A stretch of DNA of 55,031 nt from Bacteroidaceae bacterium (GCA_017616915.1 JAFZXF010000110.1:1-55031), one strand, 5' to 3'; counted from the stretch's first letter, positions 19,728-40,468 are shown. Notes: generated by a model from the letters alone, not told the origin. Numbers and translations are program-made.

Positions 19728-19755
19728 CCATTTCTACACACCTACACACACTTCA

Positions 19756-19783
19756 CCCCCGAGAGTATTGCAACTTTCGGGGG
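19756..19783 (+). terminator. Hairpin downstream of the GH89 gene
   Basis: CCCCCGAGAG pairs with CTTTCGGGGG (10-bp stem, 1 mismatch, 8-nt loop), 29 nt after the stop. The T tract is weak. Confidence 0.5.
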
Positions 19784-19810
19784 TTAATGCGTTTATCAAT
19801 CATCCAATCA

Positions 19811-19906
19811 TACCTCGTATCGATTGTGAATTCATACCTCGTATAAGGTATGAGCTTTTACCTCGTACAAGCTACCACCTTTTACCTCATACAAGTTGAG
19901 ACCCTT
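19811..19906. repeat. Phased array: TACCTC(G/A)TA(T/C) core repeated 4 times at exactly 24-bp spacing
   Basis: The cores start at 19811, 19835, 19859 and 19883. The 14-bp intervening segments differ from one another. Confidence 0.85.
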
Positions 19907-19954
19907 TCCGGAGGGTGAAATTTTAATCGACCATTATGAAAAAGACCAAAAATT

Positions 19955-20086
19955 AATCGGTTGCGACCAACTTACGAATCGGTAACAACCAACTGGGCAA
20001 TCGGTACGTACCAATATGAGAATCGGTACGTACCAACTGGACAATTGGTACGTACCGACATAATTACCGAATAGTTACCGAATTAT
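19955..20086. repeat. 22-bp tandem array (about 6 units) with AATCGGT(ACGTACC) cores; three units carry the perfect palindrome GGTACGTACC
   Basis: Units start at 19955, 19977, 19999, 20021, 20043 and 20065. The last unit overlaps the stop codon (20075-77) of the CotH-like gene. Confidence 0.85.
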
Positions 20087-23000
20087 TACCTTCTCCTTGT
20101 TGATGATATAAACGCCAGGAGGCAGGGTGATGGTCTCGCGGCCACCCTTGAGGCTGTAGAGTCGATAAACTCTGCCGTCGGCACCATAGACGGGAACTAC
20201 GGCAGCCTCGCTGCTGCTCAGCGTTACACTGTTGCCCTGCTGCCCAACGATGGACACGGCACTGTTGATGCCCGTAGGCTCCTCGAGGCAGAATTCTACC
20301 GTGCGGCTGCGACTACGCTCGTCCTCACCGAGGGCGGTAGAGAAGAGAACGTTGCTGAGAGAGGTGCTAAGCAATTGAGAATTATTTTTTCCTAACTCAA
20401 GGGTCAGCTCGCTCTTGCCGCGAGGCAACTTATGCTTGCCGCTAGCATAGATTGAAACTCTGTAGCATTGAGCATTGTCAAGCTCGGTAATGGAGACGTC
20501 GAAGTCGGGAAGGGAGCGGCTCAGGTCAAGATTGTCGAGCGTCATGCCATCGGGGATACGCAGGTCGAACTGCAGGCCGCTGTAATCGCCGTCATCCACG
20601 GCAATAACGAGCGGGATGGCCACACCCTCGTCGGTGTAGGCCACACAGCCCGAAGAAATGGCTGCATCGGCCTCAGGCAAGCCGTAGTAGCGACCGCTGA
20701 AGACGATTGGTGGTGTGGTGGTAGTGATGAGGTTGCGCACATTAATCACATCGGCCACGGTGATTATACCATTCTTGTCGGTGTCGGCCTGATAGAACTC
20801 AAAGTCCTCGTTGGGCAGGTTGAGCATATAGTTGAGCACGCACACCACATCGGAGGTAGTGACGCTACCGTCACCGTTGACATCGCCTATCAGCGGCCTG
20901 CCGCCATTGGGCTCAAGATATCCCTTGGAGGCATAGCCGAGGGTGTTGCTCATATAATTGAAGATGAAGTTTGCACGGTCTTTGAGCCACGTCTTGGCGC
21001 TGCGGGTGATGCTGGCATAAGTCTGAGCATTGCCACGACCCCAGCGCGAATTATCGTGAGAAAAGGAGGGGGCTGCAAACTGATAATAGTCGTCGCAGAA
21101 ATCTACAAGCTCGTCAAGGCTGCCGTCGTTGATGAAGTCGTACCAGAGGTTGTAGTATTTCTTGTCGAGGGCGGTAATGTTATAGCGCATGTCCTTCGAC
21201 CAAGCAAAACCTACCTCGGAGCCTGTACGCGACCAGAAATCGAGCGTAGCATGGGTGGTGAAATAGTCGCGGTTGGAGGAGAAACCGTAAGCCCAGTCAA
21301 AGTCCCACACCGGACCAAACACGTAAGGCGAACTGCTGTCCTTGATGTTGGCGTTATATACGAAGGTGCTCTTGGGGTGCATCAGCTCCACATTAGCGGT
21401 ATAGTCGGTGACGAACAGGAAACGAGCCAGATAGTCAAGGTCATAGTAAAACTCCAGGTACTCATCCTTGTTCTTCAGGGCCTCGGTGGAGCGATTGAAG
21501 CTCTCCTGAATCATGCTCTGGGTCAGACTGGTGGTGCCCTCGCTGAAGTCAGGCTCCTTGATATTCACCGGCAGGTTGTAGCTCTGGTCGCGGAACTTAT
21601 AGGTCTCGTCATAGTAGCTGTCGAGCTCCAGCAACACCGCATTGGTCTCATCGTCAAGGTCCACACTGTTGTTGGAGAGGCCTATCTTCTCCGTGAGATT
21701 GTAGGAACCGCGGTATTCGCCGTTGACATACAGCTCCACGGGTATCTCGTGATTGAAGCCCGCCGTCTCCACCAGTTGCGCCATCTTCATGGCTACGGCA
21801 TTACTGGTCATTGAATGGCTCTGGGCATTGGCAATGAGATTCCAGTGCTTGCCCTTCTTGAGACCGAGCACCTTGGTGGCGGTTTCAAACTTAAAATGGT
21901 AAGGGGCCTTGCCGCTGGATGTCCACGAACTGTTGCCGCGACCCTTAATCTGCATGTCTGTTTCTGGCAGGTCGGGGAACACTCCCGCACCGTCGATGCG
22001 TATCTTGCCGTCCCAATAGTAATGCTTCGAGGTGATACTGGTGCCGTCGTTTGTAGTGACATATACTGACGGAACCTTGTATGAGGAATTGGAATGGTCG
22101 GTGGCAAAATCCACACGCACCGTATAATCCTGTCCGTAAGGCCTTACAAGGTATTCACCGTTGAACCGGCGACGCAGGATGGTCTGACCACAACGGGCCA
22201 CGGTATAGACCACATCCTTATCAAAGCGAACACGGGTCACCTTGCTATGCTGCAAAGAATCGCCAATCCAGGCCTGCACATCCTCGTCGAGCTTAAACGA
22301 AGGACGCAGCGTCTTGCCGATGCCCACCACCTGCAGAGTGATGAGGGTATCTTCCTCAAACACACCGATGGCATCCTCGATGATATGGTGGTTGAACTTG
22401 TTGTTGAACTTAAAGCTATTGAACTCCGGCAGCGGTGGCGATACCTCGCTAAGGGAGTCCACCTCGTAGTCCTTGAATGTATAAGTGGGGCCACTGTCCT
22501 TGGTGGTGATTGATAATTGACCATCGAACATTGACCATGGGCCATTGAGCGTTGACCATTCACCATTGGGCATTAAGCATTGAACTTTATCTATATAAGC
22601 ACGGGGGAAAGCCTCTACCCTACCGTCGGCACGATAGACAAAGAGAATCTTGCCAGTGACCGGCTCCAGCTGACTGCCGGTGGTGTCAGGGTCAATAGGG
22701 TCAGGGTCGCTACTGGTGTGAAACTGCTTGCCCTTTTCGTCGTAGAGGTTGAATGTTTCGTTCAGTCCGTAAGGGATGCCGCTCTTGCTGTAAGCTCCAA
22801 GGGCATAAGTGCCGTTACGAACGTTAAAGAAATAACTCCCGTTGGCAACACTCTGGAAATAGAACAGCTCGGAGCCGTCGTCTGCAGTGGTATTGCAGAT
22901 ATACCACAGCGATGCCTCAGCCTCTATGCTGGAAGACAAATGCACATAGCGCAGTATCTCCGGCGAGTTGGTGTACTGGTCATCAAGGGTGATATACTGG

Positions 23001-23284
23001 CTGGTGGAGGCATTCTTAAGAGCATACTTGCCCGTGCCGGTGCCCTGCTCAATAAAATACCACAAGCAGTCGGCAGCATCAGGATCCTGGGTGGTTACGC
23101 ATAGCGGCGAGTTTACACCATGATTGACACCCAGTGCCGCACTACTGCCCTCCAGGAAGAGGGACTCGATGCGATACTTGGTCTTGCTATCAATTCCGGT
23201 AATGATATCTGCCCCGCAATAAGAGACAAAAAACGAGAACTGAAAGAAAAGGACTGTCCAGAAGGCCGCTACTCTTGCTTTCAT
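20075..23284 (-). CDS. Secreted multidomain protein B: lectin-like N-domain, CotH-kinase-like core, dockerin, cohesin-like module, T9SS C-terminal sorting domain
   Basis: 1069 aa with a signal peptide. The evidence by region:
- CotH-like core: IKGRGNSSWTSSGKAPYHFKFE..GLKKGKHWNLIANAQSHSMTSN..PVELYVNGEYRGSYNLTEKIG..FGPVWDFDWAYG.
- Dockerin: DVNGDGSVTTSD..DTDKNGIITVAD.
- Cohesin-like: GVAIPLVIAVDDGDYSGLQFDLRIPDGMTL.
- T9SS CTD: VPVYGADGRVYRLYSLKGGRETITLPPGVYIINKEKVIIR. Confidence 0.75.
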   Translation of the reverse strand: MKARVAAFWTVLFFQFSFFVSYCGADIITGIDSKTKYRIESLFLEGSSAALGVNHGVNSPLCVTTQDPDAADCLWYFIEQGTGTGKYALKNASTSQYITLDDQYTNSPEILRYVHLSSSIEAEASLWYICNTTADDGSELFYFQSVANGSYFFNVRNGTYALGAYSKSGIPYGLNETFNLYDEKGKQFHTSSDPDPIDPDTTGSQLEPVTGKILFVYRADGRVEAFPRAYIDKVQCLMPNGEWSTLNGPWSMFDGQLSITTKDSGPTYTFKDYEVDSLSEVSPPLPEFNSFKFNNKFNHHIIEDAIGVFEEDTLITLQVVGIGKTLRPSFKLDEDVQAWIGDSLQHSKVTRVRFDKDVVYTVARCGQTILRRRFNGEYLVRPYGQDYTVRVDFATDHSNSSYKVPSVYVTTNDGTSITSKHYYWDGKIRIDGAGVFPDLPETDMQIKGRGNSSWTSSGKAPYHFKFETATKVLGLKKGKHWNLIANAQSHSMTSNAVAMKMAQLVETAGFNHEIPVELYVNGEYRGSYNLTEKIGLSNNSVDLDDETNAVLLELDSYYDETYKFRDQSYNLPVNIKEPDFSEGTTSLTQSMIQESFNRSTEALKNKDEYLEFYYDLDYLARFLFVTDYTANVELMHPKSTFVYNANIKDSSSPYVFGPVWDFDWAYGFSSNRDYFTTHATLDFWSRTGSEVGFAWSKDMRYNITALDKKYYNLWYDFINDGSLDELVDFCDDYYQFAAPSFSHDNSRWGRGNAQTYASITRSAKTWLKDRANFIFNYMSNTLGYASKGYLEPNGGRPLIGDVNGDGSVTTSDVVCVLNYMLNLPNEDFEFYQADTDKNGIITVADVINVRNLITTTTPPIVFSGRYYGLPEADAAISSGCVAYTDEGVAIPLVIAVDDGDYSGLQFDLRIPDGMTLDNLDLSRSLPDFDVSITELDNAQCYRVSIYASGKHKLPRGKSELTLELGKNNSQLLSTSLSNVLFSTALGEDERSRSRTVEFCLEEPTGINSAVSIVGQQGNSVTLSSSEAAVVPVYGADGRVYRLYSLKGGRETITLPPGVYIINKEKVIIR
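22508..22584. repeat. Period-7 repeat, about 11 degenerate units (forward CATTGAC-type), in frame in protein B
   Basis: Read directly. The sense strand is of the GTCAATG type and encodes LMPNGEWSTLNGPWSMFDGQLSI. Confidence 0.85.
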
Positions 23285-23287
23285 TCC

Positions 23288-24340
23288 TTACTCTCCTTGG
23301 ATGATGAAGTTGTATATGGTAATAACATCGACAGAGTTGACATCGCCATCGCCATTGGTATCAGCGTATTCGCGGATGATTCCGCTCTCTTCGCCAATAA
23401 TGATGTAGTTATACACGCTCACCACATCTACCGAGTTGACGCTACCGTCACCATTGACGTCGCACACATAGCGATACTTGGCGGTTAAGGTCACATCACG
23501 AGCCGGCATCGACCATTGATCGTTGACCATTGACCATTGACCATCGACCAGCTCGCCCCAGCCCACAAACTTCTGACCGTCGAGGTCGCCAGGAACGAAT
23601 GCAGGCAGAGGATTGTTATATGCAACCTGCTCGGCATGTACCACCATATCGTCCACAACGAACTGGAGCGTATAGGAGTTGACACACCATCCAGCATAAA
23701 GGTCGAGGTTATGAGAAGGCATAACCGAGGGAACATCGCCCCACCCGCAGAAGGAATAGCCTTCACGCTCGGCAGGCTCATCAATCATAGGAATGGGTAT
23801 TCCGGCCATGAGGTTGGTAGTGTAATATACCGTATCTGCATTCCAATAGGTCAGCTTATACGATGAACCCTGAGGCTCCAACGTAAATGAGGCTACAGCA
23901 TTGTTCAGCACTGTCTCGGCACCAGCATTGGTGGTAAGACGCACATTCTTTGCCACCACGTCATATGTGCCTTCCGGAAATGTGGAAGTAGCATTAAACT
24001 TGATAGAGAACAGGTTACCACTGTTGCCCGTGATATTATTCTTCTTTGCCGAGGCGTAACCCACGATACGCGGCAGGCCATTGGTAGCGGTGCCGACCTT
24101 TATAGTCAGATTGCGAGTACGCAAAGAAGAGGTAAGCGACGCAGCATCCAGCGTCACCCCACTGGGCAATACGAAATCCATCTGGAAGCCACTATAAATG
24201 GTGGAAGGGTTATCCAGCTCTACCGTCAGAGTCCACTGACGACCGTCACCTTTCACAATGCCCATCTTTATGACATCGTCAGCCGCCCATACCACGAAGG
24301 GCATGATTGCCAGCACAATTAATGAGAATATGCGTTTCAT
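23288..24340 (-). CDS. Secreted cohesin-like / Listeria-Bacteroides-repeat / dockerin protein
   Basis: 350 aa with a signal peptide (VVWA/ADD). The evidence by region:
- Cohesin-like: WTLTVELDNPSTIYSGFQMDFVLPSGVTLD...GNLFSIKFNATSTFPEGTYDV.
- Two Flg_new-type repeats (EGYSFCGWGD, GQKFVGWGE).
- C-terminal dockerin: DVNGDGSVNSVD...DTNGDGDVNSVD.
- Its start overlaps the upstream gene's stop as ATGA. Confidence 0.7.
   Translation of the reverse strand: MKRIFSLIVLAIMPFVVWAADDVIKMGIVKGDGRQWTLTVELDNPSTIYSGFQMDFVLPSGVTLDAASLTSSLRTRNLTIKVGTATNGLPRIVGYASAKKNNITGNSGNLFSIKFNATSTFPEGTYDVVAKNVRLTTNAGAETVLNNAVASFTLEPQGSSYKLTYWNADTVYYTTNLMAGIPIPMIDEPAEREGYSFCGWGDVPSVMPSHNLDLYAGWCVNSYTLQFVVDDMVVHAEQVAYNNPLPAFVPGDLDGQKFVGWGELVDGQWSMVNDQWSMPARDVTLTAKYRYVCDVNGDGSVNSVDVVSVYNYIIIGEESGIIREYADTNGDGDVNSVDVITIYNFIIQGE
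23508..23549. repeat. Period-7 repeat, 6 units (CATCGAC CATTGAT CGTTGAC CATTGAC CATTGAC CATCGAC)
   Basis: Read directly. It is in frame and encodes VDGQWSMVNDQWSM. Confidence 0.9.
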
Positions 24341-27300
24341 CTTATTATGATTTTCTGCTTGTTGATGATATATACGCCAGGAGGCAGGGTGATAGTCTCG
24401 CGGCCACCCTTCAAGCCGTACAGTCGATAAACTCTGCCGTCAGCACCATAGACGGGAACTACGGCAGCCTCCGTGCTGCTCAGCGTTACACTGTTGCCCT
24501 GCTGCCCAACAATAGCCACAGCACTGTTGAGGCCCGTCAGCTCTTCAGAGGTAAACTCTGCTGTGCGGCTTTGGCTACGCTCGTCCTCACCGAGGGCGGT
24601 AGAGAAGAGAACGTTGGACAGAGAAGCTGACAGTAATTGAGCATTATCTATTGACCTTTGACCATTATATTTTCCCAATTCAAGGGTCAGCTCACTCTTG
24701 CCAAAAGGCAACTTATGCTTAGCACTGGAATAGATGGAAACCCTGTAACATTGACCATTGACCATTGACCGTTGGCCATTATCAAGCTCGGCCACAGTGA
24801 TATCGAAATCGGGAATAGCATGGCTGATGTCAAGATTGTCTATCGTCATACCCTCGGGAATGCGAAGGTCAAACTGGAGACCGCTGTAATCGCCATCAGC
24901 AACGGAAATAGTAAGCGGAATAGTCACTCCTTCCTCAGTATAGCTCACCGATCCGGTAGCAATGGTAGCATTAGCTTCGGGCAAGCCATAGAATGTACCG
25001 CTCTTGATTCCACTCGTTTCCACAATATTACGCACTCCAATAATATCGGCAACGGTAATCATATTATTCTTGTCGGTGTCGGCCTGCTCGTACTTGAAAT
25101 CTTCATTGGGTAGATTAAGCATATAGTTGAGAACAGCCACCAGGTCAGAAGTTGTCACACTACCGTCACCGTTTGCATCACCCATCAGCACTCCGGTGTC
25201 ATAATCATTGAGGTAACCCATTGCATTGTAACCTAACGTGTTACCTAGATAGTCGTAAATATAGTTAGCTCTCTTGCGTAACCAATCCTTAGACTTCTCC
25301 GTTATAGTGGCATAGGTGGTTGCATCGCCGTGACGCCAGCGGGTATTATCGTGAGTATAGGAGGGCGCAGCAAACTGATAATAGTCGTCGCAGAAATCTA
25401 TCAAGTCATCCAGACAGCCGGTCGTCATGAAGCGATGCCAAGTCTGATAGTATATCTTGTCGAAGTTGGTGCCGCAATAGCGTAAGTTATGTCCCCAAGC
25501 ACTGGCCTCCATAGATGACCTGCTCCAAAAGTCGTAAGCTGGTGAGCCGTTGAAATAACCGCCGCTGTACTGGTAGCCATAGCCCCAGTCGAAGTCCCAC
25601 ACCGGACCAAACACAAAGGTGGAGCTGCTGTCGAGCAAGTTAGGATTGTACCAGAAAGTGCTCTTGGGATGGAAGAGTTCGTAGTTTTCGCTAAATTCAT
25701 CCACCAGCAGGAATCGAGCCAGGTAGTCCAGGTCAACCACATACTGCATATCTTCGCCCCTATAGAGAGTGTCCCAAACGCGGTTCACACTTTCCTCTAT
25801 CATGCTCTGAGTTAGCTTAGTAGTACCTTCGCTGAAGTCAGGCTCTTTAATATTAATAGGAAGATTGAAACTGGAAGACCGGAACTTATAGGTCTCGTCA
25901 TAGTAGCTGTCGAGCTCAAGGAGAGTGGCATAGCTCTCATCTTCAAGATCCACACTGTTGTTGGAGAGGCCTATCTTCTCCGTGAGGTTGTAGGAACCGC
26001 GGTATTCGCCGTTGATATACAGCTCCACGGGTATCTCGTGGTTGAAGCCGGCAGCCTCCACCAATTGCGCCATCTTCATGGCGATAGCGTTGGTAGTCAT
26101 AGAACGGTTAATAGCGTTGGCAATCAGGTTCCAGTGCTTACCCTTCTTGAGGCCAAGTACCTTGATGGAATTCTCAAACTTGAAATGATAAGGAGCCTTG
26201 CCTGTGGATGTCCACGAACTGTTGCCGCGCCCCTTTATCTGCATGTCAGTCTCAGGCAGGTCAGGGAACACTCCTGCACCGTCGATGCTTATCTTGCCGT
26301 CCCAATAATAACTCTTAGAGTTAATGCTGGTACCGTCATTTGTGGTGATATAGACAGTAGGCACCTGACACTCTCCCGTAGAATGATCGGTGGCAAAATC
26401 CACACGCACCGTCACCTCTCGACCATAGGGCCGGGTGACATATTGTCCATCTCCAGTGCGACGCAGGATGGTCTGGCCACAACGCGCCACGGTATAGACC
26501 ACATCCTTATCAAAGCGAACACGGGTCACCTTGCTATGCTGCAAAGAATCGCCAATCCAGGCCTGCACGTCATCGTCGAGTTTAAACGAAGGACGCAGAG
26601 TCTTGCCGATGCCCACCACTTGCAAAGTTATGAGACTATCTTCATCAAACACACCGATGGCATCGCCTATGATGTGAGGGTTGAACTTGTTATTGAACTT
26701 AAAGCTACTGAACTCCGGCAGCTCGGGGGCCACATAAGATAGCGAATCGACCTCATAGGCTGCATAGGAGATGGTTTGTAACTTGTGGAAGGAAGCCTTG
26801 GGCATGAGAGTAAACGTCAGTCCTTCAGATGGCAATGCACTTCCTGGCAGGGGTAGCGAAGGAACATCTCCCTTTATATACTCCTGCGGTATAGCCTCTA
26901 CACGCCCATCAGCTCTATAAACATAAACCACAGGACCACTAATTGGCTCCAGCTCAGAAGGATCTACACTTGAAGTGTCAACAGGAATGGTATCCACAGG
27001 AGCTGTGCTACCAGGCGTTACAAGTCCCTTAGAGGCAAGATAGTCACGATGACGGGCATCCTTGGACAGGAATGTAAACGTGGAGCCACCGTCAACGGTG
27101 AACCAGCAAATTCCCCCACTACTATAATCGTTCCAAAAAGTGCGGCCTGTAATAATGTGAATATTATTCTCGCTGTTTTCACTACATGTCTTCACCCCTA
27201 TGGCATAACCTTCATAGTCTCCGCGAGAGCTCCAAGTAATCGACCAAGTGTGGTCATTGGCCTTAGGTGAACCCGAAACCACAGTAACATCGCTATCGGT

Positions 27301-28140
27301 GGTGTTCATTGTGTCCGTAAACTTACCACTCACGTAGTTGCCGCCTTCCACCATAATCTGCACACCGTCTTCTGCTTCTACGAAGTAAAAACGAGTCTTC
27401 GGGAGCTCACTGTCCTGACTCAGGCTACCCCATCCCGCATAAGTCAGCGGCTCAACCCAGTTCATGGAGCGCGAATTGCGGATATAGTAATACACTGGGC
27501 TATTGGGGTTGGTAGTCATCACCACCGGCACATCCAATCCATAGGATGTCCAATAAAGACCTTGCTCATCCTGACCGCATACATCATTATAATCTTTCCC
27601 GGGGTCATAGTACGAACCGTCCTCTTTCAGAATATAGAATATCTCATTACTTGCAGCCTCACTGGAACCGTGAGCATAAGTACCGAGAGCTCCCGAACCA
27701 CTACGGATATTGAAATAGTAATTATCCATGGCCACATTGACGAAGTAGTAGATATCCTCGTCATACACCCCGATAGTCCAAAGCGAGGAATCGCCCTTGA
27801 GTTCAGTGGTCAGGTTTAGGTAGCGGCGTATAGGATTATCAGAGCGCACATCATCCCAAGTCATATACTCTCCAGTCTTGGCGTTGCGCAATGCATATTG
27901 ACCCGCCTTATATTCCTGCACATACCAGAAGCAGTCGTCATCCGTAGCATTAACATCGGTAACACACAACGGAGAGTTCACTCCGTGAGTACTACCCGGA
28001 GCTACCGAACTACCTTCGGTGCGAACTGCCTGGATGCGAAACTTCGTCAACGGATTGAATGAAAAATTATCTGCTGACGCACCTAAGCACACTAGCACAC
28101 ATATTATCTGTAACAAAAAAGTCTTCATTCTATGTTGCAT
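24337..28140 (-). CDS. Secreted multidomain protein A (paralog of B, with an extra N-terminal module of about 250 aa): lectin-like domains, CotH-kinase-like core, dockerin, cohesin-like module, T9SS C-terminal domain
   Basis: The likely start is MQHRMKTFLLQIICVLVCLGASA (ATG at 28140, alternative at 28128). I rejected the track start at 28296. It has the same CotH, dockerin (DANGDGSVTTSD..DTDKNNMITVAD), cohesin-like (GVTIPLTISVADGDYSGLQFDLRIPEGMTI) and CTD (VPVYGADGRVYRLYGLKGGRETITLPPGVYIINKQKIIIR) modules as protein B. Confidence 0.75.
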   Translation of the reverse strand: MQHRMKTFLLQIICVLVCLGASADNFSFNPLTKFRIQAVRTEGSSVAPGSTHGVNSPLCVTDVNATDDDCFWYVQEYKAGQYALRNAKTGEYMTWDDVRSDNPIRRYLNLTTELKGDSSLWTIGVYDEDIYYFVNVAMDNYYFNIRSGSGALGTYAHGSSEAASNEIFYILKEDGSYYDPGKDYNDVCGQDEQGLYWTSYGLDVPVVMTTNPNSPVYYYIRNSRSMNWVEPLTYAGWGSLSQDSELPKTRFYFVEAEDGVQIMVEGGNYVSGKFTDTMNTTDSDVTVVSGSPKANDHTWSITWSSRGDYEGYAIGVKTCSENSENNIHIITGRTFWNDYSSGGICWFTVDGGSTFTFLSKDARHRDYLASKGLVTPGSTAPVDTIPVDTSSVDPSELEPISGPVVYVYRADGRVEAIPQEYIKGDVPSLPLPGSALPSEGLTFTLMPKASFHKLQTISYAAYEVDSLSYVAPELPEFSSFKFNNKFNPHIIGDAIGVFDEDSLITLQVVGIGKTLRPSFKLDDDVQAWIGDSLQHSKVTRVRFDKDVVYTVARCGQTILRRTGDGQYVTRPYGREVTVRVDFATDHSTGECQVPTVYITTNDGTSINSKSYYWDGKISIDGAGVFPDLPETDMQIKGRGNSSWTSTGKAPYHFKFENSIKVLGLKKGKHWNLIANAINRSMTTNAIAMKMAQLVEAAGFNHEIPVELYINGEYRGSYNLTEKIGLSNNSVDLEDESYATLLELDSYYDETYKFRSSSFNLPINIKEPDFSEGTTKLTQSMIEESVNRVWDTLYRGEDMQYVVDLDYLARFLLVDEFSENYELFHPKSTFWYNPNLLDSSSTFVFGPVWDFDWGYGYQYSGGYFNGSPAYDFWSRSSMEASAWGHNLRYCGTNFDKIYYQTWHRFMTTGCLDDLIDFCDDYYQFAAPSYTHDNTRWRHGDATTYATITEKSKDWLRKRANYIYDYLGNTLGYNAMGYLNDYDTGVLMGDANGDGSVTTSDLVAVLNYMLNLPNEDFKYEQADTDKNNMITVADIIGVRNIVETSGIKSGTFYGLPEANATIATGSVSYTEEGVTIPLTISVADGDYSGLQFDLRIPEGMTIDNLDISHAIPDFDITVAELDNGQRSMVNGQCYRVSIYSSAKHKLPFGKSELTLELGKYNGQRSIDNAQLLSASLSNVLFSTALGEDERSQSRTAEFTSEELTGLNSAVAIVGQQGNSVTLSSTEAAVVPVYGADGRVYRLYGLKGGRETITLPPGVYIINKQKIIIR
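24635..24669. repeat. Period-7 repeat, 5 units, in frame in protein A
   Basis: Encodes KYNGQRSIDNAQLL, where paralog B has KNNSQLL. The difference is 7 aa (21 nt). Confidence 0.8.
24749..24783. repeat. Period-7 repeat, 5 units (CATTGAC x3 perfect, CGTTGGC, CATTATC), in frame in protein A
   Basis: Encodes DNGQRSMVNGQCY. Paralog B has only 2 units at 20466-20479, encoding DNAQCY. The difference is exactly 21 nt. Confidence 0.9.
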
Positions 28141-28158
28141 TGAAATTAGGGTTGTCGG

Positions 28159-28166
28159 CAAAATTA
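28159..28166 (-). promoter_or_regulatory. Candidate -7 box TAATTTTG directly upstream of protein A
   Basis: The forward sequence CAAAATTA is the reverse complement of TAnnTTTG. It lies 19 nt upstream of the ATG at 28140. Confidence 0.4.
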
Positions 28167-28257
28167 CGTATATTTTCTGATATACAATGTAAAATAGGGT
28201 AAAAAAGAGCATTTTACCTAATGTAATGCACCGAAACGAGTAAGATTTGAATACAAT

Positions 28258-28290
28258 CGGTGCCGTGCAGCAACATTCTGCACGGCACCG
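28258..28290 (-). terminator. Strong hairpin between the lipoprotein genes and protein A (terminator, attenuator or processing site)
   Basis: Perfect 13-bp stem: CGGTGCCGTGCAG pairs with CTGCACGGCACCG, with a 7-nt loop. GCACCGAAAC direct repeats flank it at 28228-37 and 28285-94. Confidence 0.55.
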
Positions 28291-28322
28291 AAACACAGTG
28301 TGTAGTTATTTAGCGTCTACGA

Positions 28323-28904
28323 TTAGTCGTTCTCTGCGAGACCGCTGTAACGTACACCGCTCACTCTATACTTGGCATAGCCGTCATCCGGATACCAAGG
28401 ATCACCTTCATAGCTTACATAGAATACTATACTGTCAGCTACGGAACCGTTGTTCTGGTGACCGGCACCTTTCAGGATCTTACCCTCGGTGATAGTAATC
28501 GGATAAAGGTCACATTCATATCCGTTGACTTCTGCCAAATTCTCGGCATTATTGCAGGAGAAGGTGAGACTCTTCGTGTCGATATTAACCTTGCTTTTGA
28601 AAGCATAGCTAGGATAACCACCATAACCATAGAAGTCAGCAATGTCGAATGCGCTGAGGTCATCCACGAACATCTCGGTTGACTTGTTGTCTGCGGTATT
28701 ATAGGTAAGAAGTAGTACACGTCCTACGCCAAAATAATCCTCGCCGCCGTCAATGGGATTACCGTCATCATCAACGGCATCAATCTGCACATACCACTGA
28801 CCGGCCATCGAAACCGTAGCAGTCTTTTCTATGTCATCCTTCTCGCACGAGATAAGAAACGCGGGCAGAAGGAGCATTGCTGCGAAATATAATACTTTCT
28901 TCAT
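28323..28904 (-). CDS. PUL-associated surface lipoprotein, function unknown
   Basis: 193 aa with a lipobox (AFLISC) followed by Asp/Glu residues typical of surface-exported Bacteroidetes lipoproteins (CEKDD). It sits in the SusE/F-like position downstream of susD. Confidence 0.6.
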   Translation of the reverse strand: MKKVLYFAAMLLLPAFLISCEKDDIEKTATVSMAGQWYVQIDAVDDDGNPIDGGEDYFGVGRVLLLTYNTADNKSTEMFVDDLSAFDIADFYGYGGYPSYAFKSKVNIDTKSLTFSCNNAENLAEVNGYECDLYPITITEGKILKGAGHQNNGSVADSIVFYVSYEGDPWYPDDGYAKYRVSGVRYSGLAEND

Positions 28905-28910
28905 AGTAAT

Positions 28911-29621
28911 TTACTCTTTAACTTGTTTTACCCATGTCTGAACAAAATCCATGTTGGCATACTTAGTGGTCAGTGTAAACGTACCTGTTGCGGCATCGAA
29001 AGTTCCCTCGAAGCCTTCATCGGGACCATCATCCCAGCCCGGCACATAGCCATCCTCAAGAGTAACAGTGCCATCTGCAACAGATATTGTAGCACCCATT
29101 GCATAATCACTGCCGTAGCCTGCACGGTAGCAATACCAACCACCTAGCATGTCATCAACATCGTAGGTGCCATCCCCATTGCTGAGGACAACTACAGGAT
29201 ATTCATTACCATACTTAACCTCAGCACCCTGGCGGATTCTATAACTGTCCGAGCTATTCCAGTAGAGTCCCTCAACAGGGTCGTTAGGATCAGCCACGAT
29301 TACAGTACGAGTAGTCGAAGCGCCGAAGCCATCCTCATTCTTTGCGGTTGTGTAAGTCAAGGTATATAAACCCGGCTTGCTTGTATCTACGTTACCGCTT
29401 ATGGTAACCTGGTCGGATACGTCCTCGCCACCCATAATGGATGTATAACCGGGATCCTCCCATGTAGAGCCCTTATCAGCCACATAATACGATCCTCCGG
29501 TCAACTCAATGGTCGGGTAGTAAGTGATTCGCGACTTTCCTGCCGAATCGTCATCGCCGCAGCTAACCATAACGAAAGCAGCTGCCACGAAAAGCATTGT
29601 ATATAAAATATTCTTTTTCAT
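28911..29621 (-). CDS. PUL-associated surface lipoprotein with N-terminal Ig-like (DUF5011-type) domain
   Basis: 236 aa with lipobox VMVSCGDDD. The segment PTIELTGGSYYVADKGSTWEDPGYT...GEDVSDQVTISGNVDTSKPGLYTLTYTTAKNEDGFGASTTRTVIV matches the bacterial Ig-like pattern. Confidence 0.6.
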   Translation of the reverse strand: MKKNILYTMLFVAAAFVMVSCGDDDSAGKSRITYYPTIELTGGSYYVADKGSTWEDPGYTSIMGGEDVSDQVTISGNVDTSKPGLYTLTYTTAKNEDGFGASTTRTVIVADPNDPVEGLYWNSSDSYRIRQGAEVKYGNEYPVVVLSNGDGTYDVDDMLGGWYCYRAGYGSDYAMGATISVADGTVTLEDGYVPGWDDGPDEGFEGTFDAATGTFTLTTKYANMDFVQTWVKQVKE

Positions 29622-29648
29622 AATTTATTCAATATGAAATTAAAGTTT

Positions 29649-31163
29649 TTACTTTCCCCAGAAGATGGGAACGGTGTAGCCGGGGAACTCGGGTGAGTTT
29701 CCGTTGCGTGCAGATGAGCTCTCGGGATAAATCCAGCGCTCCAATATCTGGTTGGGGCCAACCTTGTCATCCACCTGGATGGGAGTGTAGAGCGTACCGG
29801 GCTTGTAGAGCTGGGGCTTGTAGGAAGAGTCATCCTTGAGGTTGTACATCTGGCTGCCCTGAACAGTGCCGAAGGCAGGATAATTCAGACGGCGAGCCTC
29901 ACACCATGCCTCAAAGTTGTTGGTACCAGCGAGGGCAATCCACTTGGAGATACCGATGCACTCCTGCCACTTTGCCTGAGTATAAGGGAACTGGGCAATA
30001 ACATCCTCAGCGCCATCAACACCAGCGGAAGCGCAAGATGCCTCGATAGCTGCATTGTAGTGAGCCTCAGCCTCAGTAGCATTGTTCTGACGAGCATAGT
30101 ACTCTGCGATGAAGAATTCAATCTCGGAAACGGTGATCAGATAAACTGGCATATCATACGATGCCACAGGGCGGCACCAGTAGGTTGACTTGTAGGCATT
30201 CGATGTAGAGAAGTTGGTACCAGAGATACCACCGGTATATGCACCTGTGGCATTCTTCTCAAAGAAAGCACCCAGACGCGGATCCTCATAGATTACGTCA
30301 TCGTTAGCATCCTTCTGAAGCATGGTGCCGATAATAGCCAGATTGGCTACTACGTTCTCCTGATCAGAACCCCAAGCAGAAGTGAACTCTTCTGCATAGA
30401 ACGGACTGAATGATCCGGTCTCATCCTTCCAGCAGCCAGCATAAGCCACGTCCTCGGTGGGGAAGTTGCCCTCCTCGATAAGTGCCTTAACCTTAGCCGG
30501 TGCATCGTCAGCAACATCATACTCACGCATAAGCAGTTTAAGCTTCAATGCGTTTGCAAACTGAATCCACTTAGCAGCATTCTCATCCGGGAACAGGAAG
30601 TTGGTTGCTACGCGGTCACCAGCCTGAGCTTTCTCCAAAGCCTCATCCAGCTCCTGCAGTACACCGGCATAGATATCCTTACCTTCGTCATACTTGGGTG
30701 AGGTTTTGCCTGAGAATGCCTCACTATAGGGCACTTCACCATAGCAGTCAACAAGCACCTGATAGATAAAGGCGCGCAGTGTCTTAGCAGCCAGATAGCT
30801 ACCCCATTCTTCGTTCTTCTCTGCGAGATCGCAGATAGTAGTGAGATTCTTCAAAGCACGGCCGTTAAGCTGAGTATAAGTAGAGCTTGAACGGGTAGCA
30901 GACATCGTAAACTGCGAAAAATCAAGAAAGTTCGACGTACCGAAAGCCTGAGTATAGTGTTGTGCATAGTATCCACCCGTTATACGCAAGAAGTCGCCAT
31001 AGCTACCTGCCAGGTTCATCTCTGCTGCAGGCATCAAAATGTCGGGGGTCATATTCTCCTCGCTGGGAGAGTTGGGATCCTGGTTGATATCCAGATAGCT
31101 GTCGCACGAAGCGGTCAGCAGCAGTCCCAAAGCAATTGTAGTTAAAAATGCTATTTTTTTCAT
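29649..31163 (-). CDS. SusD/RagB family nutrient-binding outer-membrane lipoprotein
   Basis: 504 aa with lipobox LLTASCDSYLDINQDPNSP (the canonical SusD N-terminus) and a TPR-like helical body. It starts 20 nt after the susC stop. Confidence 0.9.
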   Translation of the reverse strand: MKKIAFLTTIALGLLLTASCDSYLDINQDPNSPSEENMTPDILMPAAEMNLAGSYGDFLRITGGYYAQHYTQAFGTSNFLDFSQFTMSATRSSSTYTQLNGRALKNLTTICDLAEKNEEWGSYLAAKTLRAFIYQVLVDCYGEVPYSEAFSGKTSPKYDEGKDIYAGVLQELDEALEKAQAGDRVATNFLFPDENAAKWIQFANALKLKLLMREYDVADDAPAKVKALIEEGNFPTEDVAYAGCWKDETGSFSPFYAEEFTSAWGSDQENVVANLAIIGTMLQKDANDDVIYEDPRLGAFFEKNATGAYTGGISGTNFSTSNAYKSTYWCRPVASYDMPVYLITVSEIEFFIAEYYARQNNATEAEAHYNAAIEASCASAGVDGAEDVIAQFPYTQAKWQECIGISKWIALAGTNNFEAWCEARRLNYPAFGTVQGSQMYNLKDDSSYKPQLYKPGTLYTPIQVDDKVGPNQILERWIYPESSSARNGNSPEFPGYTVPIFWGK

Positions 31164-31183
31164 AATATTATCCTCCTTTTTAT

Positions 31184-34100
31184 TTAGAATTTCACACTGA
31201 CGCTGAAACCGATGGTGCGGCAGGCGGGGTTGGAGTACAATTCACCGAACATACCTTCAAGGTCGTTACCATAGGACGAGGTCTCAGGATCGAGATAACG
31301 ATTGCCCCTATGAGTCCAAGTAATGAGATTGTTGGCAAACAGAGAGAGGGTAATGTCGCTCAGGTAGAGCTTCTTAACGAGAGTCTTCGGCAGAGCATAA
31401 GCCAAAGTGATGTTACGCAGTTTCACGAAGGAACGCTTGATGAGGTAGAACTCGCCACCCATAGCGGCTCCATAGTCATTAAAGTAATCCTGATAACTGC
31501 TATTGTTAAGATAGATAGGAGTGGTATTCTCCGTTCCGTCAGCATATACCGAATTGGGGATAATGAACGGGTTACGGTCATTGTAAAGAGTTATATCGCC
31601 ATTACCGGTAAACTGCATGAGGTCCTTAGTACGAGAGAACATGTAACCGCCCTGACGAACATCAAGAGATGCGCTGAGGGTGAAGCCGTAGGCCGAGAAC
31701 GATGTGGTCAGACCTCCGGTCCAATCGGGATTCACGTTCTTGCCGGTGTCCATCACCTCATCGCTAAGAAGTGGCTGACCGCTGGCACCTACGATGAGCT
31801 TGCCATCATCAGTGTATTGCGGCATGTATGTAAAGAGTTCGCCCATGGGCTTGCCCTCAACAGCTCGCATATAAACTGCATTATTACCTGCGGAGAAGGA
31901 GTTGATGTTAACCATACCACCGTCGAGGCTTGCAGGCATCGAAACGACCTTATTGCTGTTCTTAGCAAAGTTGAGACCCAACTCCCAGCGGAACTTCTTG
32001 TTCTGCACGGGCACAGTGTTGAGCAACATCTCGACACCCCTGTTGCGTACCTTACCAAAGTTGGTAACCATAAAGCTATAACCTGTAGCGGGATCTACCG
32101 GCAGAGTGAATATCTGGTCGGTGGTGTTACGGTCGTAGTAAGAGAAGTCGAAATTGATGCGGTTCTTCAAGAACGACAGGTTAACACCCATCTCAAACTC
32201 GGTGGTCATCTCAGGCTTCAGACTATTGGAGCCAGCAGTGGAAGCTGCCTGGAATGCGTTCTTGCCGTTGAAGGGGAACTTCGTTAGATCGGAACCATAG
32301 TAACCGTTGGAGTAACCCTGCACATAGCGGGGGAATACCTGATATACATCAGCGTCGTTACCAGTCTTACCATAGGCCATACGAGCCTTACCGAAGGTGA
32401 GAATGTCATTCTTGGGGAGGAGCTTGGTGAAAATCCAGCTCAGAGTTGCGCCCGGATAGAAATAATGATTCTTCTCCAGAGGCAGAGTACTCGACCAATC
32501 GTTACGTGCAGTCAGATCAAGGAATACCATATCATCCCAACCAAGGGTAAGGTCTGCGAAGAGACCTACGCTACGACGCTTCCACTGACTTTCAAATATC
32601 TCAGTCTTAGTAGAACCGTTGCTCAAATCCCAGAAACCTGTACCGAAAGTAAGACCGTCGGTCTGGTTGCGGCTCATTGTCATGCTGCGCTCATTGATGT
32701 TGACACCTGCCATCAGGTTAACATCAAGCCTGTCGTTGAGATACTTGTCCTTCCAGTTGGCAAGGAAGTCCTGGTTGAACTCATACTTACGCTGATAGGT
32801 GGTGGAAACATAACCGGACTGGTTCACACCCTGAGAGGGAGAATAGCCGTAGTCCTCGTTGATAAGAGCATCGTCGAGATTAATCTCTGGCACGCCGATC
32901 TTATGATCATAGTCGGTATAATCGAAACCAAAACGATAGGTCAGCGTCAGCTGCTTGAGAGGCTGGAGGTCAGCCTGAATCTTACCAAACACCTGCTTGG
33001 CATCGTTGTGGTTGTAGTTGTTTTCAATAGCCCAATAGGGGTTGGTGATACCATAGGGGGTAAACCAAGCCTCCGGAGTGTTGAAGGCCACACTGAGATC
33101 CTTACGGTCAACAAGGCTGATGTCACGCGCGAACTCGTAGATACCATCAATCATGGAACGACCTTGGAAGGTTGCCACGGTGTTGGTCTTACTCTTAGCA
33201 ATATTCACGCTGGAACTCAGCTTAATCCAGTCATTAGCCTGATAGCTGCCGCGATAAGCGATAGTGTTACGCTTATAGGTGTCCTTGTCACCCGGGATGA
33301 TGCCATTGTCCCTGGAGTCAGAGTAGCTCAGGTAGTATGTCATCCTGTTGTCGCTGGATACACCGTTGAGAGCAATACTGTGGTTTGTGGTGAGACCAGT
33401 CTCAAAGAAGTCCCTGATGTTGCTCTTCAATGCGCTGTACTTATGGATAAGCTGCTGGTTGTTCCAGATAGGACCATAAACCTGCTGCGAGCCGTCAAAC
33501 TCAGGCCCCCAAGAGCCGTTCTCGATAAAGGTCTGAGTACCGTTCCAGCCCTGACCGAAGCGGTTCTGCAGCTTAGGCAGAGTGGAAACTGTACGCCACT
33601 GCCAGCTACCATCGTAGCTGATGGTGAAGTTCTTATCACCCTCCTTCTTTCCACTCTTAGTGGTAATCATGATGACACCGTTGGCAGCGCGGCTACCATA
33701 GAGAGCGGTAGCGGCAGCGCCCTTGAGCACCGTCATGGTCTCTATATCGTTGGGGTTGATGCTGGAGATACCGCCTACGGCATTAGTCATCTCCTCTGCC
33801 TCATTCTGAAGACCTTCAAAGGTAGTCTGCTGGAGAGGCACACCGTCCACTACGTAGAGAGGCTGGTTGTTACCGTTGATGGAGCTGATACCACGGATAA
33901 TCACCGAATTGGCCTGACCCGGGTCGCTGGAGGTGGTGTTTACCTGCACACCGGCTACTTGTCCGGCCAGTGAGCTGGTCACATCGGTCAGGTTACCGAG
34001 GGTCAGTTTCTCGTTGTCCAGCGTCTGGGATGAATAACCCAGCGTCTTCTGCTCACGCTTCACACCCATAGCAGTAACCACGACCTCATTGAGGTTCACC

Positions 34101-34384
34101 TGAGCAACGCGCAGGAAAATCTGCATTGAGGGCTTGGCAGCAATCTGCTGAGTCTCCTAGCCCACTGCGCTAACAAACAGGTGAGTCCTGCCCTTGGGCA
34201 CGTTCAAAGAGAACTTTCCGTCTGCCTTTGTCTCGGCAATTACGTTGGTACCTGTAACTACCACGATGACATTCTGCAGAGGCACACTGTCTTCCGACAT
34301 CACGATGCCGTTGACCTTCATCTGTGCCAACGCTCCTTGCCCTATTGCGAACAGGAGCGCCAAGAGAAATAGGATTTTTTTCAT
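31184..34384 (-). pseudogene. SusC/RagA family TonB-dependent receptor interrupted by one in-frame TAG (codon 76)
   Basis: Track ORFs 34157..34384 (signal peptide plus CarboxypepD_reg-like domain, ending ...HLFVSAVG*) and 31184..34126 (plug plus barrel) are in the same frame. The junction reads GTG GGC TAG GAG ACT CAG. The TAG sits where the conserved Tyr of the (S/I)xGY-x-TQ motif is expected. Confidence 0.8.
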
Positions 34385-34555
34385 GATAGAGAATTTAGAA
34401 TTAAACTTAAATTATCTGATTACTTGTGTTTGTTTCTGATGTTTGTGTTATATAATACAACAAAGCACGCCATCGGGACAAATCGAAACCGATTTCCCTA
34501 CGCGCGTACCTTATTTATATGTTAGTATTATGCAGTGTCATTTGAAAGTCAGCTG

Positions 34556-34563
34556 CAAAATTA
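34556..34563 (-). promoter_or_regulatory. Candidate -7 box TAATTTTG for susC
   Basis: The forward sequence CAAAATTA lies 172 nt upstream of the ATG at 34384. It is the only TAnnTTTG match I found in the 630-bp AT-rich upstream region. Confidence 0.35.
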
Positions 34564-34818
34564 TAACTTTTTTCTACAATTCAAAGCCTTTTTGTGAAAA
34601 AAAATCAAAAAACATTAAAAATTTATACTTACCGCGCTAAAAATATCAATTTTTACACATCAATATGAGCAAAATGTCACCACATCGCCTAAATAGCACA
34701 ACCCATCATTGTGTGGCAATCAAAGTCAAAATAAAGCCGTTTTAAAATCGACAAAGTACATGCCGAAACATATTAACTTCGACCTCACGCCAGGAAAGAA
34801 CGTGCGGAAAATTTTTCT

Positions 34819-34894
34819 ATGCCCTTAAAAATCCATTTGAAAGGGCATTCAAATACATTTTTAAGCCCATCAAAATGCATCTTGATGGGCTTAA
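34819..34894 (-). terminator. Two tandem hairpins downstream of recA
   Basis: The first is ATGCCCTT/AAGGGCAT, an 8-bp stem at 34819-48. The second is TTAAGCCCATCAA/TTGATGGGCTTAA, a perfect 13-bp stem at 34861-94. Both have A/T-rich flanks and there is no clean U tract. Confidence 0.5.
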
Positions 34895-35019
34895 AAATAT
34901 AATGAGAACGTTCTAAATTAAAATTAGGTCGTACTTAATCCGATTCTCCACACTCTTAATCACCGTGCGAACATTATTAATAAATGTAAACACATTGAGC
35001 AGAGAGAAGAGGATTGGGA

Positions 35020-40252: not shown

Positions 40253-40468
40253 CTAATCGTCGAAGTGGGTTTTCCACCAAGGAGTCTCACGCAGTTCGTC
40301 CATCAACTGACGAGCATCCTTCTCACTGCACGTGCCATCAGGAGCGCCTACTACCAACGAATAGCCGAATACCGAGGCACGCGTCATCATCTTACGGTTG
40401 GCTACAGCCATGCCGTGCTGCACTTTACGCGCGTAGGGAGTGAGCGGAGAGTTGTAGTCGTTACGCAT
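40253..40468 (-). CDS. Small hypothetical protein (71 aa) overlapping the zeta-like ATPase gene by 8 nt
   Basis: The ATG at 40468 lies inside ...AGCCATGCGTAA, the end of the upstream gene. The product is MRNDYNSPLTPYARKVQHGMAVANRK.... I rejected the longer track start at 40519. The gene ends 3 nt before fkp. Confidence 0.45.
   Translation of the reverse strand: MRNDYNSPLTPYARKVQHGMAVANRKMMTRASVFGYSLVVGAPDGTCSEKDARQLMDELRETPWWKTHFDD

Follow-up and report, generated by a model that had tools for sequence, protein, structure and literature searches.

A PUL27-type SusCD importer and a dockerin- and cohesin-bearing CotH cassette, probably separate transcription units, side by side in a Bacteroidaceae genome

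In Bacteroides thetaiotaomicron, the proteins BT2261 to BT2264, encoded by the polysaccharide utilisation locus (PUL) PUL27, form a stable four-component complex in the outer membrane (bioRxiv 10.1101/2022.08.15.503959), which was crystallised with an oligopeptide ligand in the SusCD cavity (PMC7782687). PUL27 is constitutively expressed and matters for fitness in vivo, and its substrate is undefined (PMC8121099). CotH proteins are described from other settings. In Bacillus subtilis, CotH requires Asp228 and Asp251 (PMC7821199); CotH retains the equivalents of D166, N171 and D184 of protein kinase A (PKA), and adenine is stacked between a Tyr and a Trp residue (PMC12189002). For the dockerin-bearing CotH proteins of cellulosomes the function is undefined (PMC12774918, PMC12484212). 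Here we describe a stretch of 55,031 nucleotides from a Bacteroidaceae bacterium (GCA_017616915.1, JAFZXF010000110.1:1-55031), called the window in the following, in which homologues of BT2264 to BT2261 are followed by three genes for the secreted proteins CotHA, P350 and CotHB, the CotH trio. We consider it likely that this block at positions 20075-34384 consists of two independent transcription units that were juxtaposed by genome rearrangement in this species, namely a PUL27-type SusCD importer and a CotH cassette for which a surface role is proposed.

Seven open reading frames (ORFs), all co-oriented on the minus strand, occupy the block. Unit 1 (34384-28323) encodes a SusC protein, a SusD protein and two lipoproteins, and unit 2 (28140-20075) encodes CotHA with 1267 amino acids (aa), P350 with 350 aa and CotHB with 1069 aa. 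Family matches were obtained by Pfam and NCBIfam profile searches of the seven block proteins. No family of glycoside hydrolases (GH), polysaccharide lyases or carbohydrate esterases was matched by the seven proteins or by the remaining window ORFs included in the scan, with the exception of an adjacent GH89 gene outside the block, and the same scans found no regulator in either set. The block is therefore not a PUL in the canonical sense, which combines SusC/D with carbohydrate-active enzymes (CAZymes) and a regulator of the hybrid two-component, extracytoplasmic function/anti-sigma or SusR-like type. A scan with Rfam gave no match inside the block.

An earlier note on this DNA had read the block as a SusC/SusD locus with the CotH proteins as its downstream cargo. 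In the description of the parts we agree with it: ORF calls and profile searches recover the same seven co-oriented genes, no CAZyme and no regulator lie inside the block, the CotH core, dockerin, cohesin-like module and lectin-like N-terminal domains are borne out by profile matches and by AlphaFold2 (AF2) models searched with Foldseek, and the tails resemble those of the type IX secretion system (T9SS) type. The caveat that a hairpin and a -7 box might set the CotH genes apart as a transcription unit of their own was right, both elements being present. The assignment as cargo, on the other hand, has to be given up, as the upstream genes are a PUL27-type unit with its own terminator and the two units are unlinked elsewhere.

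This result comes from surveys on both sides of the block. A scan with CotHA of one genome per species (GTDB set) yielded 73 loci from rumen, hindgut and human-gut metagenome-assembled genomes (MAGs) of Prevotellaceae or 'Bacteroidaceae', and their flanks were retrieved to a maximum of 10 kb per side, or less on shorter contigs. When the retrieved flanks were searched with the four unit 1 proteins by tblastn, none of the 73 loci revealed a homologue of SusD, BT2262 or BT2261, nor a close one of SusC. The one SusC match found beside a CotH gene (locus L032) is unrelated, with 23% identity. A scan of metagenome contigs with SusD gave 22 related loci with 62-82% identity, and the four-gene SusCD block is kept in every one of them that reaches far enough. 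Ten of these loci extend 2.5-8.7 kb beyond the BT2261-like gene, and none carries CotH or P350 relatives there. The lack of co-occurrence that the earlier note had named as telling against a common locus is thus what both surveys revealed outside this species. Elsewhere, the adjacency was observed only in contig L074, which belongs to the same species (CotHB 99% identical).

The position of the junction could be narrowed down by comparison with the closest different species, a locus from goat rumen (L007). Genes downstream of the trio show 68-92% aa identity to those of the window, whereas upstream of the trio sufBCDS and the genes for RNase HII, ribD and a DUF4738 protein are found; locus L001 has at least rnhB, ribD and the DUF4738 gene in common with L007. 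From this comparison, the breakpoint lies exactly within the spacer of 182 nt that separates the BT2261-like gene from CotHA. The region is one that was rearranged repeatedly in this lineage, and judged by their gene neighbourhoods the SusCD unit and the CotH trio are independent.

Within the spacer, a hairpin at 28257-28291 on the minus strand consists of a 14-bp perfect stem with ten G-C pairs and a 7-nt loop. Its 91-nt context has a ΔG of -31.7 kcal/mol (z -4.7), and the hairpin is the top-ranked terminator-like site within 19600-34900. A long perfect hairpin about 30-60 nt past the BT2261-like stop codon was found in all ten of ten related SusCD loci, often with a U tract after it, and the hairpin of L074 is identical to that of the window. 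By its position and recurrence, the spacer hairpin is the SusCD operon's own terminator. A candidate -7 box of the CotH trio, TAATTTTG (28159-28166, minus strand), was located by pattern search and ends 19 nt upstream of the CotHA ATG. Seven other loci (L001, L003, L004, L007, L011, L013 and L074) likewise have a TAnnTTTG box ahead of their CotHA homologue, at a distance of 26-121 nt. The window holds 38 copies of TAnnTTTG compared to 27±5 expected from shuffling, which is no significant enrichment; with a count only marginally above expectation, the promoter calls depend on where the boxes lie and on their reappearance in other loci. Scanning for promoters of the sigma-70 type is uninformative for Bacteroidota. 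A further candidate Bacteroidetes -7 box, again TAATTTTG (34556-34563, minus strand), was found by pattern search some 170 nt ahead of the ATG of susC and is called from its position.

Judged by its gene products and their arrangement, unit 1 is a homologue of BT2264-BT2261 (PUL27) and belongs to an already known locus type. When compared with solved structures, each of the four proteins has one chain of the BT2261-BT2264 complex (PDB 5FQ6/7/8) as its top match or as the only strong one, and the genes stand in the order SusC-SusD-BT2262-BT2261 as in B. thetaiotaomicron. The SusC/RagA-type TonB-dependent transporter (31184-34384, minus strand), 1066 aa long if read through, is placed in this family by TIGR04056 (559.7 bits, cutoff 368), TIGR04057 (64.2 bits) and the Plug domain (E 3.7e-19), and it matches its homologue BT2264 (5FQ6_B) over the full length with E 2.5e-257. 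The SusD-like lipoprotein lid homologous to BT2263 (29649-31163, minus strand; SusD-like_2, Pfam E 1.6e-53) matches 5FQ6_A with E 3e-48 and has the lipobox LTASC-DSY. A BT2262-like surface lipoprotein of 236 aa follows (28911-29621, minus strand), composed of an Ig-like and a BT_2262-like C domain (PF16403 and PF16404; 5FQ7_G, E 1.8e-38; lipobox VMVSC-GDDD). The last gene of the SusCD operon (28323-28904, minus strand) encodes a BT2261-like lipoprotein of 193 aa (Lipid_bd PF12888, E 3e-36; 5FQ6_E, E 1.3e-16; lipobox FLISC-EKDD). The nutrient of unit 1 is probably peptide-like. The PUL27 locus type itself comes without CAZyme and regulator, so that their absence here is normal and gives no pointer to the CotH genes as substitute cargo.

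At codon 76, within the N-terminal carboxypeptidase-regulatory-like domain, translation reveals an in-frame TAG (34157-34159, minus strand) that breaks the susC frame. This stop had been missed by the earlier note, as had the GH89 gene adjoining CotHB. No uninterrupted SusC frame with an N-terminal signal peptide is present; the ORF of 980 aa past the TAG has no signal peptide. In relatives the position of codon 76 is Met or Tyr and the frame is conserved on both sides of the TAG, which points to a recent event or a sequencing error. In the same-species contig L074, SusC was called intact with 1066 aa. The TAG is thus either a strain-specific nonsense mutation, making susC a pseudogene, or a sequencing error, and through this stop the importer may be inactive in this strain.

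CotHA (24337-28140, minus strand; 1267 aa from the ATG at 28140) matches Pfam CotH with E 1.3e-18 and 68.0 bits (cutoff 23.8). It is composed of a signal peptide, two tandem β-trefoils (about aa 33-370), a β-sandwich region, the CotH fold (about 635-961), a dockerin (987-1037), a cohesin fold (about 1055-1195) and a T9SS-like C-terminal tail. The AF2 model of aa 25-470, with a predicted local distance difference test (pLDDT) value of 86, matched tandem β-trefoil lectins (HA33 and others) over about 345 columns in Foldseek, from which the extra 200 aa of CotHA are assigned to a second β-trefoil. CotHB (20075-23284, minus strand; 1069 aa; CotH E 4.7e-18) contains a signal peptide, one β-trefoil (aa 30-185), a β-sandwich region (210-395), the CotH fold (400-785), a dockerin (797-855), a cohesin fold (870-998) and a T9SS-like tail (1010-1069). 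CotHA and CotHB are paralogues: their identity is 69% over 897 aa, a stretch that begins with the β-domains before CotH and runs to the C-terminal end, and 41% within the first N-terminal module.

Between them lies P350 (23288-24340, minus strand; 350 aa), whose start overlaps the CotHA stop by 4 nt and which is separated from CotHB by a gap of 3 nt. P350 consists of an SPI-type signal peptide, a cohesin-like module (aa 20-155), a Listeria-Bacteroides repeat (223-288; Flg_new E 2e-7) and a dockerin (294-345; E 8e-13, 48.8 bits). Its N-terminus shows 27% identity to the cohesin-fold module of CotHB (E 2e-6), and the cohesin fold of P350 follows from this homology only. Eleven P350 homologues (from L001-L014) have a like architecture with an SPI-type signal peptide and the dockerin at the C-terminal end. 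All three trio members contain one cohesin-fold module and one dockerin each.

For the AF2 model of CotHB (mean pLDDT 84, predicted template modelling score 0.66), the first PDB match in Foldseek was the CotH kinase of B. cereus (5JDA/5JD9) with E 4.7e-11, TMt 0.73 and 408 columns. In this model aa 400-785 form an α/β domain and aa 797-855 a small helical module. The CotH-fold domain (20930-22087, minus strand), which is of the atypical kinase-like type, scores 66.2 bits against PF08757 (cutoff 23.8). The trio giants therefore match the Pfam family (CotHA and CotHB) as well as the Bacillus CotH fold (CotHB model). The cohesin matches of CotHB comprise 2JH2, 2VO8 and 2W1N (C. perfringens), 2XDH (A. 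fulgidus), 6KGC (C. acetobutylicum, TMt 0.71) and 5N5P (R. flavefaciens), with TMt 0.58-0.71 for the five other than 2W1N, and the models of CotHA and CotHB match β-trefoils (HA33, MOA, SSA and designed trefoils) with TMt up to 0.85, which identifies the trefoil fold. Foldseek does not give the matched query residues; the cohesin matches were assigned to aa 870-998 and the trefoil matches to aa 30-185 by aligned size and by the secondary structure of the model, aa 870-998 being the only β-sandwich of matching size in CotHB. The cohesin-fold β-sandwich corresponds to 20291-20677 (minus strand). The type I dockerin of CotHB (20720-20896, minus strand; PF00404 28.3 bits, cutoff 22.9) contains the Ca2+-binding F-hand loops DVNGDGSVTTSD and DTDKNGIITVAD, and both D-x-N/D-x-D/N-G loops are present in the dockerins of CotHA, P350 and CotHB. 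Dockerins were also matched when the family profile was searched against PDB.

Four motifs had suggested the CotH assignment in the earlier note, namely a basic segment, HWNLIAN...S, VNGEYRGSYNL and GPVWDFDW. They are real and invariant across 42 relatives. Direct sequence routes from CotHA/B to a solved CotH, by phmmer and with the 42-sequence profile against PDB, returned dockerins only, and a hidden Markov model of the domain aligned with 5JD9 in the WDxD stretch only. Due to the failure of these direct searches, the link to the CotH structure was made via Foldseek and via a canonical paralogue in the window. This third CotH-family gene (49362-52085, plus strand; 907 aa) encodes an F5/8-type-C (discoidin) domain, a canonical CotH domain with the catalytic Asp kept (Pfam E 5e-41), a ricin-type trefoil and a tail resembling a C-terminal domain (CTD), and it has no dockerin. 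Compared to 5JD9, both Asp residues of the paralogue are kept (GNCDGF...WDYD against QNFDGF...WDYD). When CotHB is aligned with the paralogue, the first Asp is paired with E633 and the Trp-Asp with W660-D661, and N631 at a helix end with the following strand in the AF2 model agrees with the register of E633. From translation and this transitive alignment to 5JD9, the variant catalytic loop of CotHB is N631-V-E633-L-M-H636-P-K638-S639 (21368-21394, minus strand), and W660-D661-F-D663-W (21293-21307, minus strand) is the counterpart of WDYD in Bacillus CotH with its adenine-stacking Trp and metal-binding Asp251. The comparison with CotH structures that had been called for thus gives a divided answer: the fold is found and the Lys, Trp and metal-binding Asp residues appear retained, whereas the catalytic Asp would be replaced by Glu.

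The conservation of this region is high. The 73 loci supply 88 CotH domains with 33-72% overall identity, and 87-88 of these domains keep each of the residues K459, K465, N631, E633, H636, K638, S639, D661 and D663. The metal-binding Asp (D251) and the adenine-stacking Trp are accordingly present, D661 in 88/88 domains and W660 in 42/42 aligned relatives. When 1.84 billion cluster representatives were searched exhaustively, 7290 proved to be CotH-domain relatives at E<=0.001, and with the limit set to E<=1e-30 there were 464; among 140 further representatives inspected from the latter, the signature N.E..H.K[ST]...WD.D is exact in 110, and Asp occurs in one. With nine residues invariant, the Glu variant loop is not a sign of decay. 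By this pattern, the Glu loop marks a large and distinct subfamily that is uncharacterised and in which the putative active site is strongly constrained. As the third paralogue is of the Asp type, Asp-type and Glu-type secreted CotH proteins occur in one genome.

The order of a long CotH protein, a cohesin-Flg_new-dockerin protein of 340-480 aa and a short CotH protein was found in 14 further loci. One of the trio-bearing loci (L004, UMGS2057) is apparently a human-gut MAG. Clustering of the ORFs from 15 loci revealed the trio alone as universal. The neighbours are lineage-specific, with DUF4738/ribD/rnhB in 5-7 loci, MTHFR/holB/PSP1/Ppx in 6 loci and GH89 in 5 loci, and were rejected as parts of the system since they only reflect synteny within a lineage. 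Distant relatives with 35-48% identity (L016 and L020, for example) have a single CotH-dockerin giant with N-terminal F5/8-type-C or ricin-type and Big_2 domains. In L016 (8747-13177) and L020 (10010-14595) the giant is directly followed by a protein of 199-213 aa with a P350-like N-terminus, in L020 also with a dockerin. As the distant loci retain both, the conserved core consists of a CotH giant and a small cohesin protein, and the ancestral core of the cassette seems to be this pair. A mobile-element origin of the trio was rejected as well, as neither integrase nor transposase was found among the window ORFs scanned and no composition break was seen. Relatives of the trio giants are named 'CotH kinase family protein' at NCBI. 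Several contigs with Prevotellaceae-type CotH trios or relatives (L005, L010, L011 and L046) carry the record titles B. thetaiotaomicron, Lactococcus garvieae, Anaerovoracaceae and Opitutae, which is probably due to mislabelling of metagenomic bins in the public records.

For the action of the trio we propose the following sequence. All three proteins would be exported to the periplasm by Sec. CotHA and CotHB would then cross the outer membrane by the T9SS via their C-terminal tails and remain on the cell surface. Cohesin-dockerin pairing would join CotHA, CotHB and P350, or further dockerin or cohesin proteins, to a small Ca2+-dependent, cellulosome-like assembly with P350 as adaptor; the mutual linking is proposed since each trio protein has one dockerin and one cohesin-fold module. 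The N-terminal β-trefoils, or discoidin-type modules in relatives, would target the complex to a glycan or glycoprotein, on which the CotH-fold domain would carry out a nucleotide-dependent reaction of the phosphoryl-transfer type outside the cell. We infer the surface location, the partner binding, any enzymatic activity and the substrate, and thus all steps after export by Sec. Taken to its end, the proposal describes a T9SS-exported, cohesin-dockerin self-assembled and lectin-steered surface phosphotransferase machine in a Gram-negative anaerobe of gut or rumen. Its Glu/Lys-variant loop (N-x-E-x-x-H-P-K-S ... W-D-F-D-W) would catalyse a reaction other than the Ser phosphorylation known from CotH of Bacillus; it might, for instance, phosphorylate or nucleotidylate extracellular glycans or glycoproteins of the host or of plants. 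This is a tentative picture to which we assign a low probability; if true, a surface phosphotransferase would be a new functional class inside the CotH superfamily.

A number of observations speak against our interpretation of the block and of the trio and have to be weighed here. The adjacency of SusCD and CotH is genuine and recurs in another sample from this species (L074), and with all seven genes co-oriented, read-through past the hairpin is possible. Several module assignments stay below profile thresholds. The CotHA dockerin scores 22.8 bits, 0.1 under the cutoff of 22.9; P350 reaches 17.4 bits with PF00963 Cohesin (E 0.005), under the cutoff of 24.1, and no Pfam Cohesin match was obtained in CotHA or CotHB at E<=0.01. 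The RicinB_lectin_2 matches of the window proteins are below cutoff, and the C-terminal β-sandwich tail of CotHB, which resembles a T9SS type A sorting domain (20078-20257, minus strand), has 17.9 bits against TIGR04183, under the 23-bit cutoff; at E<=0.05 the profile is matched by 15 of the 22 family tails, with 5.6e-6 as the lowest E-value. Neither a T9SS CTD nor a lipobox was found in P350 or in the 11 homologues examined; piggy-back export, after cohesin-dockerin binding in the periplasm, is one possible route of P350 to the surface. At the active site, the catalytic Asp (D228 in B. subtilis; D166 in PKA) is lacking, and the aligned Glu633 is invariant in 88/88 related domains. The position equivalent to N171 of PKA appears changed as well, to K638 or S639, so that kinase activity is not assured. 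The equation of E633 with Asp228 rests on the transitive alignment and on a predicted secondary-structure register rather than on residue-level superposition. Finally, ATP is scarce outside cells.

Some of these points lead to the main rival reading of the CotH-fold domains, which we regard as rather unlikely: they would be non-enzymatic, serving as adhesins that bind host or plant ligands or as a cohesin-dockerin surface-layer scaffold. CotH invasins of Mucorales bind GRP78, which is an example of such a role. The Glu at the catalytic Asp position, the following loop that differs from Bacillus CotH, the little ATP available outside cells and an architecture dominated by lectin-like, Ig-like, cohesin and dockerin modules are in accordance with binding, and for cellulosomal CotH, which has no defined function, a structural role has been proposed (PMC12484212, PMC12774918). 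In contrast, nine residues of the active-site region are near-invariant at 33-72% identity and over hundreds of cluster representatives, among them the N-lobe Lys residues and the metal-binding Asp, and with the adenine-stacking Trp likewise in the invariant set this pattern is more readily explained by a catalytic or nucleotide-binding site than by a surface that only binds. The exchange of Asp for Glu is also conservative, as the carboxylate is kept.

The cohesin-fold modules might also recruit dockerin-bearing enzymes such as CAZymes that are encoded elsewhere, instead of the trio dockerins, making the trio the scaffold of a broader cellulosome-like system of Bacteroidota. We consider this improbable. 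It would agree with the cohesin fold and the intact double F-hand dockerins, with the recurrence of GH89 and FGE-sulfatase-domain genes beside the trio in some loci, and with dockerin-like double F-hands in 26 of 140 related representatives, a count from a crude motif. Among the window ORFs scanned, however, there is no other dockerin or cohesin match, the adjacent GH89 has no dockerin match, and the 1:1 ratio of cohesin to dockerin in each trio protein together with the conserved pairing of giant and small cohesin protein suits a closed, self-contained assembly better. That the block is a single SusC/D-centred locus, with surface CotH, dockerin and cohesin proteins capturing or modifying a substrate for import by SusCD as stand-ins for the CAZymes of a PUL, is very unlikely and largely refuted by the comparative data: seven adjacent and co-oriented genes with only 182 nt between the units, the same arrangement in a second contig of the species, the cell-surface prediction for both protein sets and a BT2261-64-type transporter without known substrate or partner enzymes (PMC8121099) would favour it, but this SusCD set is near none of 73 CotH loci and CotH is downstream in none of 10 SusCD loci, the nearest other species have housekeeping genes upstream of the trio, a strong and positionally conserved hairpin terminates the SusCD operon, the trio has its own candidate promoter, and here susC has a premature stop while the trio is intact.

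Two juxtaposed units thus remain our preferred reading of the block. Just outside of it, convergent with CotHB, lies the GH89 gene (17169-19727, plus strand) for an α-N-acetylglucosaminidase of the NAGLU family. GH89 genes stand beside the trio in L006, L008, L009, L014, L074 and L075, accompanied in L008 and L075 by an FGE-sulfatase-domain gene; the remaining trio loci lack GH89. As the missing CAZyme, GH89 was rejected due to its convergent orientation, its position outside both units, its absence from most trio loci and the lack of a dockerin match. Its recurrence may be a hint at host glycans or mere lineage synteny.

Other genes of the window were recorded as well. An ORF of 873 aa (37628-40249, minus strand) has fucose-pyrophosphorylase and GHMP-kinase domains; we take it to resemble a bifunctional L-fucokinase/GDP-fucose pyrophosphorylase of the Fkp type, which would act in fucose salvage for surface glycans. 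A small ORF of 184 aa (40461-41015, minus strand) encodes a zeta-toxin/AAA_33-like kinase. Two tRNA genes (45640-45713, plus strand, and 45855-45925, minus strand) are the only Rfam matches in the window. The genes at 15281-15946 (called TP_methylase in L074) and 14369-15232 sit beyond the far side of the CotH trio in the window; in L083, L084, L088 and L093 their homologues precede a BT2261-64-type operon.

With the present analysis a false lead is removed. The block represents no new kind of PUL, as its SusC/D part copies a structurally solved complex and the adjacency to CotH is limited to this species. For operons of the BT2261-64 type, the four-gene block and a terminator hairpin were found in each related rumen metagenome locus long enough to show them. 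The CotH cassette is common to many uncultured Prevotellaceae from rumen and human gut and unites cohesin-fold, dockerin and T9SS-like modules with a CotH fold of the kinase-like type. Its invariant variant active site, swappable lectin modules and dedicated small partner protein offer handles on the function of secreted CotH proteins. The literature search revealed no paper on CotH together with T9SS or on the function of CotH in Prevotella, in agreement with the earlier statement that no role of CotH on the surface of Gram-negative gut anaerobes is described, and none on T9SS cargo with cohesin-dockerin pairs of the trio kind.

In comparison with known systems, unit 1 shares with BT2261-BT2264 (PUL27) four homologous proteins in the same order and the lack of CAZyme and regulator. 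Acidic residues after the lipobox Cys, seen in all three unit 1 lipoproteins, are counted as a further shared feature. Differences are the premature TAG in susC and the length of the BT2261-like protein, 193 aa here compared to a PDB chain of 148 residues; complex and ligand are known from B. thetaiotaomicron only.

The trio has the fold, an above-threshold Pfam match (PF08757), the basic N-lobe motif (GRGNSSW...K.PY.FKF) and the Trp-Asp of WDxD in common with CotH from Bacillus, the atypical Ser kinase of the spore coat (5JD9/5JDA). It differs by an identity of only 13% and by the invariant Glu of the N-x-E-x-x-H-P-K-S loop, which would stand at the position of Asp228. Bacillus CotH is moreover an enzyme of 360 aa in the mother-cell cytoplasm, whereas the trio domains belong to secreted multidomain proteins of 1000-1300 aa in a Gram-negative non-sporulator. 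Closer in architecture is CotH from clostridial and anaerobic-fungal cellulosomes (for example Ccel_1101 of R. cellulolyticum), with which the trio shares the fusion of CotH to a type I dockerin, the extracellular location, which for the trio is predicted, and the occurrence in plant-fibre and gut habitats. Unlike these proteins, the trio is found in Bacteroidota, has a T9SS-like tail in place of Gram-positive secretion, combines dockerin and cohesin fold in one polypeptide, and has β-trefoils and a dedicated gene for a small cohesin-dockerin partner.

The best structural matches of the module after the dockerin are the cohesins of non-cellulosomal cohesin-dockerin pairs, as in glycosidases and toxins of C. 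perfringens (2JH2, 2VO8, 2W1N) and in A. fulgidus (2XDH). Like the assembly proposed for the trio, the C. perfringens-type pairs join secreted proteins that are not cellulolytic, although for the trio the binding is predicted only and Pfam Cohesin stays below threshold. The AF2 model of CotHB ends in a β-sandwich some 60-80 aa long that resembles the C-terminal domain of T9SS type A cargo (TIGR04183); most family tails (15/22) match the profile, and those of the window are below its cutoff. The SusCD part of the block is already known, and the CotH trio varies a known theme: it would be a T9SS-linked version, in Bacteroidota, of the dockerin-CotH proteins, with its own cohesin-fold modules and a distinct catalytic loop.

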